Source of the DNA: a plasmid
Sequence record: NZ_CP031419.1
DNA: 64,000 nucleotides
Reading direction: 5' to 3' (one strand)
Positions 39,036-47,057 of this stretch are shown piece after piece. A model generated the notes under the pieces. That model did no database searches. It was not told the DNA's origin and saw nothing but the letters and a program-made list of their open reading frames with translations. The position numbers were made by a program, and so were the translations under genes. How positions within the stretch are numbered: position 1 is the stretch's first letter; every line of letters starts with the position of its first letter.

Positions 39036-39488
39036 TCATGAGGTTTTCGATGAGATCTTGTCCTCGGTCGACTCCGATTGGGTGATCCGCTTGTCGCCCT
39101 CGGCCTTCTCGGCGACGGCCTCTTCGGCCCAGTCCGACCACGCCGGGTAGGACTCCGCTTCGGCCCACCATGCGTTGCGCGCGTCCTGCCACACCTCGAC
39201 AGAGCAGCTGAACGAGCGCCGAGGCCGAGTGCCGGCCTGATCCGGGGGTGTGCGCCGACCAGGCGGCAATCGGTCCGGGGCGGGCTCGAACGTGGAGATA
39301 CCGAGGTTCTGGCGCGTGCGCGCGGTCTTCTCGGCGAGCGCCGCCTCGAGCCATCCGGTCCAGGTCGGGTACTGGCGGAGTTGCTGGCCCCACTTCTTCT
39401 TGGCGGCTCCCCACACCTCGTCACTGCACGAAAAGTTCTCTCGGCTCCATCGACGTCCCCCCGCCGCGTCGGACTGTGTGTCGGCCAC
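39036..39488 (-). CDS. hypothetical protein with duplicated Trp-rich module
   Basis: NFSCSDEVWGAAKKKWGQQLRQYPTWTGWLEAALAEK and SFSCSVEVWQDARNAWWAEAESYPAWSDWAEEAVAEK are tandem repeats. Confidence 0.55.
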   Translation of the reverse strand: MADTQSDAAGGRRWSRENFSCSDEVWGAAKKKWGQQLRQYPTWTGWLEAALAEKTARTRQNLGISTFEPAPDRLPPGRRTPPDQAGTRPRRSFSCSVEVWQDARNAWWAEAESYPAWSDWAEEAVAEKAEGDKRITQSESTEDKISSKTS

Positions 39489-39770
39489 AGGCTCTTCCTT
39501 CCTCTCGACGGCGTCGCAGGCTGGGTCGCACCTGACCGCAGCCGCAGGGTTCCACTGTATCTAAAGGTGCGTCCACACCTAATGGTCCGAGTACCCCCGC
39601 CGAGCCTTTCGGATCTATCGCACCATTAGATACATTAGAGGCATACCAAGTTTACCTGCGGCAACCGTCGCAGGTGAAACCGCAAAACGGATGTTTTAGA
39701 TACATCAGCTACAACGGAACCATTGGGGCTGGTGACCATCGCCGCCCCGCCGCCGAACAAGGAGGCGAAC

Positions 39771-42700
39771 ATGGCGCGGCGAATGCGAAGAATGCAGAGC
39801 GAAGGCCAGCTCAGCCTGGAGGCTCTATGGGGTGACCCGGACCCGGCCCCCTCGACCGTCGACAACCGAAAGGACAATGAGCGCGATGATCATCGATCAG
39901 GTCAGGACGTACTACTCGACGTACCTGCCACAGACGACCGCAGCACTGGACGACTCGGAGGAGTTCTTCCAGGAGCTGAGCGACCAGATCAGCCAGCGGG
40001 TCGAGCAGATCACGGCGCAGCTCGAAACGAACGCGATCGTGCCGGGGCAGGACTACCTGGAGCGAGTGGGAACGCTGAACACCCTGCGAGCGCAGGCACT
40101 GGAATCGGCGCTGGCGGAGCTGCTGTACTCGACACCCCCGGAAGTCGACGAGGACCCGGAACCCAGCCAGACCGAACGCGACCTGCTGGTGATGCAGCAG
40201 GAGGAACGCGCGGTGGATCAGCGGCTGGAGATGGCACCGGGCAGCCCGGAGGCGATCGAGTGGGATCGCCGGTATCCGCATCTGGTCGAGGAAGTGAACT
40301 GGATGCTGACCGATCACGGGGAGCTGACGGTCGAGCAGAAGCGCGAGCAACTGGCGCAGATCATGCACCGGCAGGACGAAGCGAGGGCCCGGCTCCGTCC
40401 GTAGAGCCCCGCACCGGCGAAGGTGGGGACGTCCTTCCCGCCGGGGAACGGCATTACCTGATCGACGGGCTAGAAGTCTGGGAAGCAACCGCCAGCGACT
40501 CCCAGGAGGGCCGATGGGAACGTGCCCGCAGCATCGGTACGGCCACCAGCGCTGAGGAAGCCATCCGCTTGGCGCAGGCCGACGCAATGTTCACCCCGGC
40601 CGAGCTGGCAACGCTGCGCTGCAAGGTCGAGGACGAGGCGTACTCCTACGGCGGGTACAACCGCCCACTGGAGATCTTCAACCCCGGCACCGCCCCTCGC
40701 TACTTGACCGAGGGGCCGCTCAAGTCGTTGTCCACCGGGGAGCGGTTCGGCCCGACCTGGCTTCTGGTGGAGTCCTACCTGCGCGCGCACCCGGACCTCT
40801 ACGACGAGACACCCACTTCGGTGGAAGCCCGCCAGGCGCAACGCAGTGCGGCCGTCAAATCGCTGACCACCGAGGCCGCCGAGCACTTCCGGGCCGGCCG
40901 ACTCGCCCGCGCGCGAGAACTCGTCGATCAGGCCGAACTCGCCAACCCCTACGAGACCGGGACATACGACGGCATCCGCGCCCGCATCGACCGGCTCGCA
41001 GGGATCGTCGACGAACTCGGGCTCTCGCGACCGCAGGAACGGTTCGACGGGCTGCCCGGGGGCAAGCAGGCACAGGTCAGCGTCGGCGACCACAGCTTCT
41101 CCCTCGAGCCCCGAGGGGGCGGCCGTTGGGTCGTCTACCCGAAAACCGGCGGCGTCGAGGACCAATCCACACTGGCGGAACCCATGCCGACCAGCGAGGT
41201 AATGCCGCGCATTCGGACCTACCTGGCAACTCTCTCCGCCCCGCAGAACCCCGAGCCAGCAGCTCACGCTCCCAGCGCTGCGACGACTGCCGCAGAACCG
41301 CGCAATCCCGCGACCCCAGGGGCTGCCCCGGAGGAACCGCTTCTGATCGTCATCGAGCACACCGCGGAGGGCACGCTCGTCCGCAACACCGACAAGAACA
41401 ACCTCGAGCTCCGGCAGGCCCTGCATGACGCCAAGTTCAATTGGTCACGCCCGCAAAAGTTCTGGTACCAGCGGCGGGCAACAGATTTCGCGGTGCGTAC
41501 CCGTCGAGTCGGTTACCTCCGGGCCTCGCTGACCAGGCTCGGGTTGCCCTTCACGGAGACGAATCCGGCGAGTGCCTTGTCCGCCACCGCGGCCGCGGAC
41601 GCCGTTGAGGTCGCGGCTCCGGAGAGAGCGCACGAGCAGCGAACACCCACTGAAACCCAACGTGATCCGGCAGCGGAGTCGGTGGCCTCCGCCGAGGTTT
41701 CACCGACGGCTTCGAGCACGCCGACGCCGCCTTCACTGTCACCTGAAGGCACTGCTAACACCACGACGGCGACATCGACGGCGGTTCCTACCTCCCGAAC
41801 CGAACCGCCCGCCGACCAGCCGGACAGCGCCGCCGGAATTGCCGAAGTCCCGGCACCCGAACAATCGCCGGCTCCGAAGGTCGAGGTGCCACGCTCGACC
41901 CAGCGCCGCATCGAGGCGAACCTGGCAGCGATCAGGACTCTCCAGCTGGTCGAGGCCGAGAGCCGTCAGCCGACCGACGCCGAGCGGGAAGTGCTGGCGA
42001 AGTGGACCTCGTGGGGTGCTGCTCCCCAGATCTTTGACGCTGAGCGCGAAGAGTTCCGTTCGGACGCCGAGTCGCTGCGGGCCCTGATCGGCGAGGAAGG
42101 CTGGAAACAAGCCAATCGCACCGTCCTCAATGCCCACTACACCGATCCGATGATTGTTCGGGCGATGTGGGACCACCTTCGGGCACTCGGGTTCACCGGC
42201 GGTCAGGTACTCGAGCCAGGTTGCGGGGCGGGGGCCTTTATCGGGCACGCTCCGCAGGCGGCATCGATGACCGGCATCGAGCTGGACTCCACCACAGCGC
42301 GCATCGCGCAAACGCTGTACCCGCGCGCCAACATTCGCGTCGAGTCCTTCGCGGACACCCGGCTCCCGGAGGGGCACTTCGACGCCGCGATCGGAAACGT
42401 GCCGTTCTCCTCGGCCCGCCTCCACGACCCGGTCCACAACGCCGGCGAGCACACCATGCACAACCACTTCATTCTCAAGTCGCTCGCGCTGACCAAGCCC
42501 GGCGGCGTGGTGGCGGTGGTGACCAGCTCGTTCACGATGGACAACAAGAACCCCGCTGCTCGCCGCGAAATCGCCGCGCAAGCGGACTTTCTGGGCGCAA
42601 TCCGACTTCCCAACGGTACGCACCGACGGGTCGCGGGCACCGACGTGCTCACCGACATCCTGATCCTGCGCCGCCGCGACGGTGAAGCCCGCCGACCCGG

Positions 42701-45700
42701 CGGGCCCTTCGAGCTAGCCGTCACCGCCGAGCTCCCGCTGACCCGGGGACAAGGGGAGACAGAATCGGTACTGGTCAACGAGTACTTCCTCAACAATCCG
42801 GAGATGGTGCTCGGTGACCTGCGGGCGGGCACCAGCGTTTACGGTGGGCTCGCGGTCGAAGTGCTCGGCCGCGGCGACCTGGAGCAGCACCTGCGCGACG
42901 CGCTGGCTCGAATCGCCGAACGCGCCCTGTCCGAGGGCATCGCCCATCAGCCCAGGGAGCTGGCCAGTGGCGAGCGTCGGGCAGCCGCAGCCGCTCCCGG
43001 TGATCCGAACGAATTCCCTGGCCATCTGCGCACCACGGCGAGCGGATTCGAAGTGCTGCACACCGATGGCACCTACAGCGAGCTGAAGGTGCCCAGCACC
43101 CAAGCCGAGGAGCTGCGGGCACTGCTCGGCTTGCGAGACACCGCGGTTGACCTCTTGGAAAACGAGGCCGCCAACGCCGAGGACTCCGACGAGATCGAGG
43201 CCCTGCGCACGCGCCTCAACCAGCGCTACGACCGCTACGTCGAGCGCTATGGAGCGATCAACCGATGCTCCTGGCATCCGACCGGCCGTGTCGACGACGC
43301 CGGGGAACCGGTGATGTCCGTACGCCGGCCGCCGGTGATGCGGGTGTTCCGCGACGATCCGCACGCGCCGGTTGTGCTGGCCCTCGAGGACTACGACGCC
43401 ACCACCGACAGCGCGGTGAAGATGGCCATCATGCGTCAGCGCGTCGTCGCGCCGCGCAGTCCGCGCCTGGGTGCGGATACTGCCGAGGACGCGGTGGCGA
43501 TCTGCCTCGACACCCACGGCAAGATCGATCTCCCGGTCATCGCGGGCCTGCTCGGCGTAGACGACGACGAAGCCCGCGTCCAATGCCGAGGTCTCATCTA
43601 CCCCGACCCCGCCGACAACGGCCGGTACGTTCCAGCGGCGGAATACCTCTCGGGGAACGTGCGGGTCAAACTCGATCAGGCCCGCGAGGCGGCTGCGGCG
43701 AACCCGGAGACCTACAGCGACAACGTCACCGCGCTCACCGCGGTCATCCCGCCCGACCTCGGACCGGCCGAGATCGACGCCCGCCTGGGCGCGGTGTGGA
43801 TCGAAGCGCCCGACGTGCAGGCGTTCCTCAACGAGATCCTCAACGATGACACGATCACCGTCGAGCACACCAAGGCGGGGGAGTGGAAGGTCACCGGCGG
43901 CCGTCGCGGCATTCTGTCGACCCAGGAATTCGGCACTTCCCGCGTCCCGGCGCCCAAACTCGCCCAGGCCCTGCTGCGGCAGGCCCCGATCCGCGTCTAC
44001 GACCCGGACGAGAACGGTGAGGCTCGCATCCCCAACCCCACCGAAACCGAAGCCGCCAACGAGAAGGCCGAGCAGCTCAACGAGCGGTTCTCCGAATGGG
44101 TGTGGGAGAACCCGGTCCGGGCCGCACGCCTGAGCGAGGAATACAACCGGCGCTTCAACAACCTGGTGCTGCGCAACTACGAGGCCGACGGCAAGATGCT
44201 CAGTCTGCCCGGCCTGTCCAAGGTCTACACCCCGCGTCCGCACCAGCGCGCCGCGGTGGCTCGCATGATCGCCGAACCGAACGTGGGCCTCTTCCACGCG
44301 GTCGGCGCTGGCAAGACCCTCGAAATGGCGATGGGCGTCATGGAGCTCAAACGCCTGGGCCTGGTGAACAAGCCTGCCATCATGGTGCCCAACTCCATGC
44401 TCGACCAGTTCGCCCGCGAATTCCTCCAGGCATACCCGCAGGCGCGCATCCTTGCCGCCGGCACCGAGGATCTGGCCGGGGAGAAGCGGCGGCAGTTCGT
44501 CGCTCGCGCGGCCACCGGGGACTGGGACGCGATCATCCTGACCCGCGGGTCATTCCAGCGCCTCGAGGTCTCCCGCGAGACCGCGCACTGGTACTTCGAT
44601 CGTGAGATCGAGCCCCGGCGCCAGTACCTGGCGGAACTGATGTCCGGCAGCGCGAAACGCAGCGTCGTCAAGCGTATCGAAGACGCGATCCTCAAGTCCG
44701 AGGAGAAGCTGAAGAAGAAGCTCGGCGGTCCCACCGATCCGGGCATCACCTTCGAGCAGTCCGGCATCGACTACATCGTGGTCGACGAGCTGCACGACTT
44801 CAAGAATCTGGCTACCGACACCCAGATCGAGTCCGCCGCCATTGCGGGCAGCCAGCGGGCGCAGAAGCTGCACATGGTCGTGGAGTACCTGCGCGACAAG
44901 CACAACGGTCGCGCCATCACCGGCGCCACGGCCACCCCGCTGGCGAACTCGATCACCGAGGCGTACGTCGTGCAGCGCTACCTGCGCCCGGACCTGCTCG
45001 AAGAGGCCGGAATCCGCAACTTCGACGAGTGGGCGGCCACCTTCGGCAAGACCAAAACCGAGCTGGAGATGTCGGTCGACGGCAACTCCTGGAACCTCAA
45101 GACCCGGCTCGTGGGCTTCCGCAACGTTCCTGAGCTGCAACGCATGTTCCATGTCGCCGCCGACGTGAAACTGCCCGAGGATCTGAACCTCCCGGTGCCC
45201 AAGCTCGCCCGCCGTGCCGACGGGCAGCGTGCGCCGGAGGTCATCTCGGTGCCAGCCACCGAGACCCAGCTCGAGTACGTCCGCGACCTCGGGCACCGCG
45301 CCCAGATGGTGAAATCGCGGGCGGTCGACCCGACCCGCGACAACATGCTCAAGATCTCCTCCGACGGCCGCGCCGCAGCGCTGGATCTCCGGCTGGTCAA
45401 GTCGCTCGGCCTCACCCCTGGCGCCGCAGAAGAACAGGGGAGCCCGACGCTGGACACCGCAGAGGGAGCCGCCATTGCCGGATATCTCCACTCGAAATCC
45501 CCGAGTCCGTCTACAGCGAGGTATGTCGCACTGTACGCAGCGCGATCACGCCACGAACCGCAGCGCCAGGAACCGCAGGAGATTGCCGAGGAAGAGTTCG
45601 GTCTCAAGCTCGAGGCGGCGGCGGACTGGATGTTCCAGAAGTGGCAGGCCGCCAAGGATCAGGTCTACCTCGGCCGGGATGGGCAACCCCACGCCCGCCG

Positions 45701-47057
45701 AGGCGGGCTCGTCGTCGCGTTCTGCGATCTGGGCACCCCCGGTGAGGACTGGAACGCCTACGACGAGCTCAAGACGAAGCTCATCGCGCGGGGCGCTCCG
45801 CCGGAGCTGTTCGCCTACATCCACGACGCGAAGAACGACAAGGGCAAAGCGGCGCTGTTCACCAAGGCCCGAAACGGCAGCATCCAGTTCTTGTTCGGTT
45901 CCACGTCCAAGATGGGCGTCGGCGTGAACATCCAAGACCGCATGGTCGCCATGCTGCACGTCGACTGCCCTTGGCGGCCCGCCGATATCGAGCAGCGCGA
46001 CGGCCGCGGCATCCGCCAGGGCAATCAGAACGAGGAGATCGCGGTTGGCCGAGTCGTCACCGAAGGCACCTTCGACGCCCGAATGTGGGCGGCCCAGGCG
46101 CGCAAGGCGGCCATGGTCAATCAGTTCATGAAGGGCTCTCTGACCGCCCGCGAGATCGACGACATCGGCGACGCGGCCCTCAACGCCAACGAGGCCCTCG
46201 CTATCGCCAGCGGCAACCCCCTGGTGCTGGAGAAGGCCGAGATCGACATCGAGGTCACCAAACTCGAACGTCTGCGGCGCGCGCACCAGCGCAGCCAGTC
46301 CATGCTGCAAATCCGCATCCGTGATGCCAACGACGCGATCCCCAAACTGGAGGCCGAGATCGACGCCTACACCCGGGCGATCGAGCACCGCAGGCCAACC
46401 AAGGGCGATGCCTTCGCCGCCAAGGTCAGCGGACGCTTCTACGACCACCGCGGCGACGCCGGCGACGCCTTGGCCGCCCGGCTGCTCAAGCTGATCGAAG
46501 ACCCCCGGGCGGTGTGGAAGGAGTTCGAGGACCACGGAGTGGCCGAGATCGCTGGCTTCACCTTGGACGCCCGCAACGTCCCGACGGGCCGCGAAGCCAG
46601 GGTGTCGGTGGTGTTCTCCGACATCGGCGACGATGTCTACGTCACGCTCGACAAGGCGACGCTCCAGAAGGGCGGGACCGCCGTGATGCTCCGCCTGGAG
46701 AACGCCGTCAACGGCTTGGACAAGCGGCTTGAGGTTGCCACCGGGCGGCTCGAAACCGAGCGCACGGAACGAGAGCGCTCCGAACTCCGCCTCGGCAAAC
46801 CGTTCGAGCACAGCGAACGGCTGGATGCGCTCCGGGAACGACAGAAGGAGATCAACAAAGAGCTGCTCGGCAGCAAGGAAACGGAGACCGAGAACGCCTC
46901 GACCGATCCGGCGACGGCGCCCGACGAGGCCGAATCCATCCGGTCGGCCGCAATGCACGACGCCGCAGCAATGGTTCACCAGATGGGAGGTGCCGCAGTG
47001 GTCAACAGCCCCAGTGGGATCACGATCATCAGCGATCGGGGCGGGCGGGCTCGGTGA
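39771..47057 (+). CDS. giant N6-type DNA methyltransferase / SNF2-family helicase (P1 DarB-like); true start unresolved
   Basis: Methyltransferase motif I GQVLEPGCGAGAFIG and motif IV NVPFS. Helicase motif I HAVGAGKTLEMAMG, motif II VVDELHDFKN (DExH) and motif VI QRDGRGIRQGN. Its frame is clearly coding only from about 40404 onward. The 39771-40400 portion overlaps the real alternate-frame gene above. Confidence 0.8.
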   Translation: MARRMRRMQSEGQLSLEALWGDPDPAPSTVDNRKDNERDDHRSGQDVLLDVPATDDRSTGRLGGVLPGAERPDQPAGRADHGAARNERDRAGAGLPGASGNAEHPASAGTGIGAGGAAVLDTPGSRRGPGTQPDRTRPAGDAAGGTRGGSAAGDGTGQPGGDRVGSPVSASGRGSELDADRSRGADGRAEARATGADHAPAGRSEGPAPSVEPRTGEGGDVLPAGERHYLIDGLEVWEATASDSQEGRWERARSIGTATSAEEAIRLAQADAMFTPAELATLRCKVEDEAYSYGGYNRPLEIFNPGTAPRYLTEGPLKSLSTGERFGPTWLLVESYLRAHPDLYDETPTSVEARQAQRSAAVKSLTTEAAEHFRAGRLARARELVDQAELANPYETGTYDGIRARIDRLAGIVDELGLSRPQERFDGLPGGKQAQVSVGDHSFSLEPRGGGRWVVYPKTGGVEDQSTLAEPMPTSEVMPRIRTYLATLSAPQNPEPAAHAPSAATTAAEPRNPATPGAAPEEPLLIVIEHTAEGTLVRNTDKNNLELRQALHDAKFNWSRPQKFWYQRRATDFAVRTRRVGYLRASLTRLGLPFTETNPASALSATAAADAVEVAAPERAHEQRTPTETQRDPAAESVASAEVSPTASSTPTPPSLSPEGTANTTTATSTAVPTSRTEPPADQPDSAAGIAEVPAPEQSPAPKVEVPRSTQRRIEANLAAIRTLQLVEAESRQPTDAEREVLAKWTSWGAAPQIFDAEREEFRSDAESLRALIGEEGWKQANRTVLNAHYTDPMIVRAMWDHLRALGFTGGQVLEPGCGAGAFIGHAPQAASMTGIELDSTTARIAQTLYPRANIRVESFADTRLPEGHFDAAIGNVPFSSARLHDPVHNAGEHTMHNHFILKSLALTKPGGVVAVVTSSFTMDNKNPAARREIAAQADFLGAIRLPNGTHRRVAGTDVLTDILILRRRDGEARRPGGPFELAVTAELPLTRGQGETESVLVNEYFLNNPEMVLGDLRAGTSVYGGLAVEVLGRGDLEQHLRDALARIAERALSEGIAHQPRELASGERRAAAAAPGDPNEFPGHLRTTASGFEVLHTDGTYSELKVPSTQAEELRALLGLRDTAVDLLENEAANAEDSDEIEALRTRLNQRYDRYVERYGAINRCSWHPTGRVDDAGEPVMSVRRPPVMRVFRDDPHAPVVLALEDYDATTDSAVKMAIMRQRVVAPRSPRLGADTAEDAVAICLDTHGKIDLPVIAGLLGVDDDEARVQCRGLIYPDPADNGRYVPAAEYLSGNVRVKLDQAREAAAANPETYSDNVTALTAVIPPDLGPAEIDARLGAVWIEAPDVQAFLNEILNDDTITVEHTKAGEWKVTGGRRGILSTQEFGTSRVPAPKLAQALLRQAPIRVYDPDENGEARIPNPTETEAANEKAEQLNERFSEWVWENPVRAARLSEEYNRRFNNLVLRNYEADGKMLSLPGLSKVYTPRPHQRAAVARMIAEPNVGLFHAVGAGKTLEMAMGVMELKRLGLVNKPAIMVPNSMLDQFAREFLQAYPQARILAAGTEDLAGEKRRQFVARAATGDWDAIILTRGSFQRLEVSRETAHWYFDREIEPRRQYLAELMSGSAKRSVVKRIEDAILKSEEKLKKKLGGPTDPGITFEQSGIDYIVVDELHDFKNLATDTQIESAAIAGSQRAQKLHMVVEYLRDKHNGRAITGATATPLANSITEAYVVQRYLRPDLLEEAGIRNFDEWAATFGKTKTELEMSVDGNSWNLKTRLVGFRNVPELQRMFHVAADVKLPEDLNLPVPKLARRADGQRAPEVISVPATETQLEYVRDLGHRAQMVKSRAVDPTRDNMLKISSDGRAAALDLRLVKSLGLTPGAAEEQGSPTLDTAEGAAIAGYLHSKSPSPSTARYVALYAARSRHEPQRQEPQEIAEEEFGLKLEAAADWMFQKWQAAKDQVYLGRDGQPHARRGGLVVAFCDLGTPGEDWNAYDELKTKLIARGAPPELFAYIHDAKNDKGKAALFTKARNGSIQFLFGSTSKMGVGVNIQDRMVAMLHVDCPWRPADIEQRDGRGIRQGNQNEEIAVGRVVTEGTFDARMWAAQARKAAMVNQFMKGSLTAREIDDIGDAALNANEALAIASGNPLVLEKAEIDIEVTKLERLRRAHQRSQSMLQIRIRDANDAIPKLEAEIDAYTRAIEHRRPTKGDAFAAKVSGRFYDHRGDAGDALAARLLKLIEDPRAVWKEFEDHGVAEIAGFTLDARNVPTGREARVSVVFSDIGDDVYVTLDKATLQKGGTAVMLRLENAVNGLDKRLEVATGRLETERTERERSELRLGKPFEHSERLDALRERQKEINKELLGSKETETENASTDPATAPDEAESIRSAAMHDAAAMVHQMGGAAVVNSPSGITIISDRGGRAR
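39877..40404 (+). CDS. acidic hypothetical protein in a different frame from the track's giant ORF
   Basis: GC3 about 88% with typical actinobacterial codon usage (CAG/GAG/CTG/GTC). The overlapping giant-ORF frame has GC3 about 40% over the same span. GAAAGGA RBS before the ATG. Confidence 0.55.
   Translation: MSAMIIDQVRTYYSTYLPQTTAALDDSEEFFQELSDQISQRVEQITAQLETNAIVPGQDYLERVGTLNTLRAQALESALAELLYSTPPEVDEDPEPSQTERDLLVMQQEERAVDQRLEMAPGSPEAIEWDRRYPHLVEEVNWMLTDHGELTVEQKREQLAQIMHRQDEARARLRP

Follow-up and report, generated by a model that had tools for sequence, protein, structure and literature searches.

The present study examined a 64,000-nt window of the plasmid record NZ_CP031419.1 (the window being the whole stretch of DNA analysed, 68% GC), in which a giant open reading frame (ORF) at 39771–47057 is proposed to encode a 2,428-residue DarB-like methyltransferase and SNF2/SF2 helicase "polyvalent" protein; all coordinates are positions on the + strand of this window. 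The first part of this ORF contains, in its +1 frame, a second gene at 39877–40404, predicted to encode a TnpV-like protein of 175 residues (from ATG 39877) or 172 residues (from ATG 39886). It is considered probable (roughly 0.8) that 39771–40404 is a conserved same-strand nested gene pair with true dual coding, in which both frames are read. Comparison across lineages showed, at the level of sequence, both starts, selection on the N-terminal peptide of the giant protein and on the nested protein, and avoidance of stop codons. The making of both products, the disorder of the tether between the N-terminal peptide and the body of the giant protein, and the roles suggested for the N-terminal peptide and the TnpV-like protein are what we infer. 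Taken together, the N-terminal peptide, the selection on the nested gene, the stop avoidance and the nested gene's own initiation signals make nested dual coding the best reading of the overlap.

Under this nested arrangement, ribosomes would initiate at ATG 39771 behind the Shine–Dalgarno (SD) sequence AAGGAGG and produce the 2,428-residue methyltransferase-helicase protein, comprising a conserved peptide of ~30 residues (a basic stretch and QLSLEALW), a tether at about residues 39–211 and then a folded body. Ribosomes would also initiate 106–115 nt later, at ATG 39877 or 39886 behind AAGGA, and produce a helical TnpV-like protein of 172–175 residues from the +1 frame. The nested gene would set the nucleotide sequence and the codon bias of the overlap, and the tether would be encoded by the −1 register of this separately initiated gene, which would never carry T at a third position where the next codon begins with AA, AG or GA. 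The N-terminal peptide could dock a partner, and the TnpV-like protein could work with the giant protein or regulate it.

Reading frames and composition of the overlap

The giant frame runs uninterrupted from 39678 to 47057. An earlier note, made from the letters alone, had described the +1 ORF between ATG 39877 and the TAG at 40402–40404, and both this ORF, which has another ATG at 39886, and its translation were reproduced. The contrast in GC content at third codon positions (GC3) that it reported, about 88% in the +1 frame and 40% in the giant frame, was likewise borne out, with values of 0.857 and 0.375, respectively, over 39877–40401. The giant frame is coding-like on either side of the overlap, as had been proposed, with a GC3 of 0.77 over 39771–39875, 0.73 over 40404–40568 and 0.84 from 40569 onward. 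The AAGGAGG ribosome-binding site of that note is present and lies at 39759–39765, 5 nt upstream of the start codon, whereas the position given for it, 39771, is that of the ATG it serves. In addition, the TTG at 40569–40571, which encodes residue 267 of the long ORF, was confirmed as the earliest canonical start in this frame downstream of 40404.

The frame switch itself, and nothing more, would be accounted for if indels from sequencing or assembly, or the decay of a pseudogene, had split one larger protein. Over 39400–41400, the window is 95–96% identical in nucleotide sequence to Nocardia plasmids such as pNF1, which are typed as MOBP-mobilizable. Alignment of 39600–40700 from five independent sequences (the window and four complete plasmids) contained zero indels, including at 39860–39890 and 40395–40410, where a check for indels had been suggested; the frame arrangement is therefore real and no sequencing artefact. 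Moreover, the two frames keep this relation at protein identities of 49% to 98% and in different phyla, and the proposal of two indels in a single larger protein, one of three offered in the earlier note, is left with a practically negligible probability.

Start and N-terminal peptide of the giant reading frame

The giant frame opens with the conserved peptide MARRMRRMQSEGQLSLEALWGDPDPAPST (39771–39857), a basic stretch followed by a Q-L-S-L-x-x-L-W motif, for which the consensus across lineages is MARRxRRxxSEGQLSLEALWGDPxPxPST. The ratio of nonsynonymous to synonymous change (pN/pS) over this peptide was 0.04–0.5 when read in the giant frame, compared with values of around 1 or higher for the other two; between the window and the locus L018, for example, eight changes are synonymous and one is nonsynonymous. 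The peptide recurs in every Nocardia lineage, and its version in the Rhodococcus plasmid pYLC2 is VARRPRKSRESEGQLSLESLWADPDPRPST. Related peptides also open the giant frame in plasmids of Paenarthrobacter (MAGRKKQIDGQLSFEALW in pTC2), Kocuria (MARARRRTQVEGQLSIDAFLF), Ruania, Pimelobacter, Micromonospora, Pseudonocardia, Leifsonia and Nocardioides. Every Nocardia and Rhodococcus lineage has an ATG or GTG and an SD-like element at the giant start despite diverged upstream DNA, and the element stands 5–9 nt before the homologous start codon in nearly every lineage. Since the giant frame has no stop until 47057, whatever initiates at 39771 reads into the helicase. QLSLEALW may resemble a beta-clamp-binding or PIP-like motif, and the basic N-terminus may be a type IV secretion signal; neither possibility was adopted.

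Conservation of the giant frame resumes downstream of the nested stop and upstream of the TTG at 40569, which is the equivalent of the start assigned by RefSeq and the NCBI Prokaryotic Genome Annotation Pipeline (PGAP) to a "helicase-related protein" in four near-identical Nocardia plasmids. The first conserved structured segment, HYLIDGLEVWEA (40449–40484), contributes to a motif, GxR[HDK]YL[IV]DG[LV]Q.WE, that is kept across the Nocardia lineages, and further conserved giant-frame residues (..RHYLIDGLEVWE..; ..ERHYLIDGLEVWEA..) lie between the nested stop and this TTG. Among the close plasmids, all four substitutions within 40475–40562 fall at third positions of the giant frame. No canonical giant-frame start is found between 40404 and 40569 in the window. 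On this comparison, the RefSeq helicase start is judged to lie 266 codons too late. A single-sequence AlphaFold2 (AF2) model of the giant N-terminus had no secondary structure over residues 1–226, a beta-hairpin at 227–238 and a helix at 261–270 that holds the TTG-encoded residue; its confidence was low throughout (mean predicted local distance difference test score, pLDDT, 43.5), and it was used as weak support.

The nested TnpV-like gene

The nested gene has its own SD-like AAGGA at 39870–39874, inside the giant ORF, and ATG 39886 is the start common to all Nocardia relatives. SD-like elements were present 4–12 nt upstream of the nested start in all 20 loci surveyed (in Microbacterium, AAGGAGG is followed by five nucleotides and ATG), and both the giant and the nested starts are accompanied by SD elements in nearly all loci. 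Homologues of the nested protein in Nocardia and Rhodococcus are stand-alone proteins of 170–183 residues, an alignment of 12 sequences has 45 invariant columns, and pN/pS in the gene's own frame is 0.35–0.7. The AF2 model built on the same 12-sequence alignment was all-helical with a mean pLDDT of 85. The claim of the earlier note that a gene of ~175 residues occupies the +1 frame was upheld by this conserved family, the confident model, the ribosome-binding site and the selection on its codons, all of which indicate that the predicted gene is real. In the four near-identical Nocardia plasmids, RefSeq labels it as a 172-residue hypothetical protein. Across the Nocardia plasmids, the nested gene is 98–99% identical, compared with 84–85% protein identity for the N-terminal domains of the giant protein (40449–41900); the latter region is, by this measure, diverging faster than the nested gene.

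A profile search with the Nocardia family retrieved 536 clusters, mostly of short proteins sharing the N-terminal ~90 residues, and the additional C-terminal half (residues ~95–175) is specific to Nocardia and Rhodococcus. TnpV is a transposon-encoded protein without an assigned function, named from a transposon. The window protein had no match to the Pfam TnpV family (PF14198; gathering score 27 bits), the Rhodococcus orthologue reached 19.3 bits and other relatives scored 14–25 bits, all below the threshold, and the protein is therefore best called "TnpV-like", a putative distant relative below the family threshold. PGAP names several of the plasmid relatives "TnpV protein", the actinobacterial profile matched a Listeria TnpV ORF with E = 1e-5, and bona fide TnpV is found in the +1 frame of giant coding sequences (CDSs) of Clostridium perfringens and Listeria at the same position, upstream of the module that precedes the methylase. 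A fold search of the PDB with the nested-protein model yielded no significant match (best E = 2), NCBIfam returned no family for the small proteins, a metagenome scan found nothing, and one near-identical sequence was all that a query with the small protein of Rhodococcus contributed.

Programmed frameshifting was considered, either as a +1 shift after initiation at 39771 followed by a −1 shift back, or as a −1 shift where the small gene ends, fusing the TnpV-like protein to the helicase. The geometry is that of IS3-type and dnaX-type frameshifting, the large downstream ORF being read in −1 with respect to the small one. However, a slippery heptamer of the form X_XXY_YYZ occurred in none of the 20 nested genes, which possess an SD and a start of their own, and giant-frame conservation (..PSTV[DE]xRKDNE..) does not end at the nested start codon but extends beyond it, in a region where the small frame is poorly conserved. 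Nor would frameshifting need the giant frame to be open over 90–185 codons, and the 150 profile matches listed are short (76–732 residues), none being a fusion to the giant protein. Frameshifting, another of the options raised earlier, is thus regarded as highly improbable.

Absence of giant-frame stops across the overlap

The giant-frame reading of the overlap (39885–40403, 173 codons) is rich in Gly, Ala, Arg, Asp and Pro and is probably a disordered tether; across all loci, 80% of its residues are Gly, Ala, Arg, Asp, Pro, Ser or Glu and 9% are hydrophobic, and its predicted tryptic peptides include LGGVLPGAER and AGAGLPGASGNAEHPASAGTGIGAGGAAVLDTPGSR. It appears to be an unconstrained tether that joins the short N-terminal motif to the protein body, and the sole detectable demand on the giant frame within the overlap is, as far as comparison reveals, that it contains no stop. 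The earlier note had tied its view of the giant frame as non-coding to whether the Gly/Ala/Arg-rich translation is conserved among homologues: the residues are not conserved, but the openness of the frame is. Together with the conserved start, SD and selected N-terminal peptide, the absence of stops in 20 of 20 diverged loci speaks against that view.

In none of the 19 Nocardia and Rhodococcus loci does a stop interrupt the giant frame along the nested gene. Such a stop is possible only where a nested codon ending in T precedes AA, AG or GA. In seven sequences representing the lineages, counted over the nested gene up to an internal GTG at 40260, T occupied 0 of 238 such "dangerous" third positions compared with 31 of 650 safe ones (Fisher, p = 5e-5), and a conservative column-level version of the test gave p = 0.006. 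Furthermore, the 20 diverged Actinomycetota plasmid loci contained 0 giant-frame stops where 27.5 were expected from permutation of synonymous codons, the product of the probabilities of an open frame being 1.4e-16 over the 20 loci, with values of 0.004–0.03 for the plasmids of 60–64% GC among them. The −1-frame stop rate in the bodies of the giant genes (0.006–0.019 per codon) is of the size that this expectation needs, and codon context is therefore no explanation for the missing stops.

The leading rival to nested dual coding is a pair of ordinary genes that overlap barely or not at all, with the helicase starting at TTG 40569 or GTG 40260 and the upstream open frame a spurious product of high GC content. 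Several results weigh against dual coding, and most of them fit this explanation. The NCBI pipeline calls two non-overlapping genes in the closest plasmids, four of which are annotated in this way, and pN/pS in the giant frame across the overlap is 1.1–1.9, indicating no amino-acid constraint, and only 0.5–0.8 in the 54 codons before TTG 40569. In a single-genome control, a −1 frame was open over 172 codons in 13–35% of comparable windows, and the open frame is not significant in any one high-GC genome (P 0.03–0.38; 0.12–0.35 for the window alone). A GGAGG followed by seven nucleotides and GTG (40248–40262) offers a possible start for a shorter helicase. In addition, the loci of the wide survey were found via the TnpV-like gene, such that the sample is one of TnpV-like genes in these loci, and literature searches found no proteomic or ribosome-profiling data on the two products, the case being wholly comparative. 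The low giant-frame GC3 in the overlap (0.375) also appears to favour two separate genes; it cannot exclude translation, since only one of two overlapping frames can carry codon bias.

Permutation on the window alone, or on the part of a single Nocardia locus upstream of GTG 40260, was likewise not significant (P 0.1–0.6); because the single-genome tests are not significant, the argument rests on many lineages. At that level, two ordinary genes would assign no purpose to ATG 39771, its SD or its selected peptide, and no stop codon to the frame that these open, and would leave unexplained the complete lack of stops over 20 diverged loci, the CDSs with large domains upstream of the nested ORF and the same nesting in plasmids of only 25–37% GC, while a start at TTG 40569 would cut off conserved residues. 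GTG 40260 was also considered as the sole helicase start and rejected: its site is forced by the invariant SPEAIEWD of the nested protein, so that its conservation says nothing on its use as a start, and the upstream peptide would remain unexplained. It could yield a shorter isoform. The suggestion that the giant's start had been mis-called fails on the same conserved start, SD and peptide and on the stop-free loci, and two separate genes are considered unlikely.

Distribution of the nested architecture

Plasmids were searched with a distant TnpV-like protein, and 16 further loci from Micrococcales, Micromonosporales, Propionibacteriales, Pseudonocardiales and Kitasatosporales were inspected; in all 16, the TnpV-like ORF occupies the +1 frame of a longer ORF that no stop interrupts along the shared stretch. 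The surrounding ORF is a giant helicase in most of them and is shorter, or reaches the end of the locus, in a few; most of the long ORFs open with a related N-terminal peptide. Moreover, in Micromonospora NBC_00821 and Streptomyces viridifaciens pKVP1, large domains stand upstream of the nested ORF within the same annotated CDS. Overlap lengths are 520–630 nt, and the open stretch spans 90–185 codons across loci.

A +1 ORF at the corresponding position also stands out within the annotated giant genes of three low-GC plasmids of other phyla. In a C. perfringens plasmid (25% GC), the nested +1 ORF has 121 codons, compared with 36 for the next longest, and matches Pfam TnpV with 82.2 bits; in Listeria pLIS49 (37% GC), it also has 121 codons, compared with 70, and scores 27.7 bits. 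Both frames are clearly genuine in these two plasmids, and this supports the same reading for the window. A Campylobacter coli plasmid (28% GC) has a nested +1 ORF of 166 codons, the next longest having 43. In p13786 (locus L039, 1962–2459), this 166-codon ORF has an AAGGAG SD and lies inside a giant gene annotated as SNF2-related; it had no TnpV or other Pfam match and occupies the same relative position as TnpV in the other phyla. With slightly better than even confidence, it is proposed that TnpV-family genes generally lie concealed, in the +1 frame, within the linkers of DarB-like polyvalent methylase-helicase genes in conjugative plasmids of Actinomycetota, Bacillota and possibly Campylobacterota.

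The annotation of the records is inconsistent: most give TnpV and a truncated helicase, only the long helicase and no TnpV is found in those of Paenarthrobacter pTC2, Micromonospora NBC_00821, S. viridifaciens, C. perfringens and Listeria, and that of Rhodococcus pYLC2 has a 100-nt overlap. In the Listeria records, the matching giant CDS is labelled "ArdC-like ssDNA-binding domain-containing protein". Relatives of the giant protein without TnpV occur in Rhodococcus equi pVAPA and in a plasmid of Mycobacterium sp. djl-10. In the latter (locus L040, 1443–2500), the giant frame reads ..ARRRKAQPLAEDDPQLALF.. about 100 residues before the pre-methylase module, the adjoining codon being the non-canonical GTA, and the frame is open across an entire upstream gene of 223 codons, which lies in its +1 frame.

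Domains of the giant protein and neighbouring features

Downstream of the overlap, the giant ORF contains a conserved pre-methyltransferase module at 41793–42100 (..RRIEANLAAIRTLQL..AKWTSWGAAPQIFD..; general pattern ..ANLAAI..W[ST]SWGA..), which is probably a region of the LPD36 type, a domain named in PMC5512222. A 105-residue segment of Pimelobacter homologous to this module matches 733 plasmid records across many phyla. Pfam domains follow in the order Methyltransf_25, ResIII and Helicase_C: the Methyltransf_25 domain lies at 42207–42398 (27.6 bits; cutoff 27), and the SF2/SNF2-type helicase core at 44229–46022 combines ResIII (23.7 bits; cutoff 22.5) and an SNF2-related match with Helicase_C after them (26.5 bits; cutoff 23.5). 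Residues 1–500 of the long ORF, used as a database query, gave one truncated homologue among matches dominated by low-complexity words, and few relatives were recovered by tblastn when the query was the N-terminal domains of the giant protein that are specific to Nocardia. After the YLIDGLQVWE motif (~40490 in the window), some Nocardia lineages (loci L014, L016 and L018) have, in place of the short loop of the window, an insert of ~100 residues (..PYTHWAYFDDEASARACAADL..) that gives a faint RraB-type Pfam signal, which suggests that the N-terminal region of the giant protein is modular.

Two features near the giant start were also observed. In the Micromonospora zamorensis plasmid (locus L026, 2398–2401), an ArdC-like gene ending at 2401 overlaps the proposed giant ATG at 2398 by 4 nt, and the two may be translationally coupled. 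In the window, an AT-rich motif, TTAGATACAT[TC]AG, occurs three times (39550–39710) between divergent genes for a 150-residue protein and ParA and the giant ORF, with direct copies at 39626 and 39696 and an inverted copy at 39556–39565; the copies are fully kept in four Nocardia plasmids, and the set looks like candidate operator sites.

Relation to known systems

Overprinted same-strand nested genes are exemplified by genes of phage phiX174, comS within srfAB in Bacillus subtilis and rnpA/rpmH in Thermus. As in these cases, two proteins would come from one stretch of the same strand, one partner is odd in composition and likely disordered, and the nested gene has its own initiation site. Unlike them, the overlap spans 520–630 nt, is carried by conjugative plasmids instead of viruses and is conserved across orders and apparently phyla; the nested partner is here predicted to be well folded and has a rich family, whereas the large host ORF contributes only an unconstrained tether. 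Frameshifting systems such as orfA/orfAB of the IS3 family and dnaX share the small upstream ORF followed by a large ORF in the −1 frame; they differ in having a slippery site and an overlap of a few tens of bases instead of one covering the whole small gene, and the large ORF here has a conserved start of its own upstream of the small gene.

The giant ORF resembles the DarB-like DNA methylase–SNF2 helicase "polyvalent proteins" described from phages and conjugative elements (Iyer et al. 2017, PMC5512222) in its methyltransferase followed by an SF2 helicase, the conserved module ahead of them and its location on a MOBP plasmid. The text of that paper contains none of the words "TnpV", "frameshift" and "overlapping", and a literature search on TnpV with overlap, frame or helicase returned nothing relevant; it appears that neither the nested gene nor the short N-terminal peptide has been described before.

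A further comparison is ShiLan, an HNH endonuclease hidden out of frame in a phage methylase gene (PMC11855218), which is similar in that a methylase-type host gene is open across a segment coding for another protein in another frame and annotation sees only one of them. ShiLan is, however, a sporadic homing insertion that encodes a nuclease without a detectable ribosome-binding site, whereas the nested protein here is TnpV-like, has no nuclease domain and an SD, and is vertically conserved at a fixed site. By analogy, the TnpV-like segment could be, or could have begun as, a selfish out-of-frame insertion that keeps the host frame open; this published precedent, the TnpV-less relatives in R. 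equi pVAPA and Mycobacterium djl-10 and the transposon from which TnpV takes its name are in its favour. In contrast, no nuclease, recombinase or other mobility domain was detected, the position is fixed in all lineages and the segment diverges alongside its host (35–98% identity). Nor was presence/absence polymorphism seen among close relatives, the nested gene being at the same site in 19 of 19 Nocardia and Rhodococcus loci. Such an insertion is regarded as very unlikely; it bears mainly on how the arrangement arose, less on what it does at present, and does not conflict with dual coding.

Implications

Co-directional prokaryotic overlaps longer than 60 bp are essentially absent except for a few instances, according to a bioRxiv preprint (10.1101/724807). 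Long co-directional overlaps have been deemed nearly absent from bacteria, and gene callers forbid them. Overprinting itself is known; the present case appears unreported in the literature searched, as do its length, its distribution and the consistent errors in its annotation. Nesting conserved from Nocardia to Clostridium would be, outside viruses, a rare instance of dual coding that has remained stable in evolution, and it shows that low GC3 within an overlap is no evidence against translation. Annotations in the records examined either lack TnpV entirely or shorten the giant anti-restriction-type protein at its N-terminus (by 266 residues in the four RefSeq records from Nocardia), and the N-terminal peptide has consequently gone unnoticed.

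If TnpV genes are generally hidden in the linkers of DarB-like genes, these would count among the bacterial same-strand nested gene pairs of greatest length, age and spread, with annotation pipelines reporting one partner only or truncating the other. The fixed nesting would then point to a functional or regulatory coupling of the two genes, which could set the ratio of their products or act through mutual interference between initiation and elongation, during establishment of the transferred DNA. The arrangement links TnpV to methylase-helicase proteins that are thought to protect incoming plasmid DNA, and thus offers a place to look for the role of TnpV.

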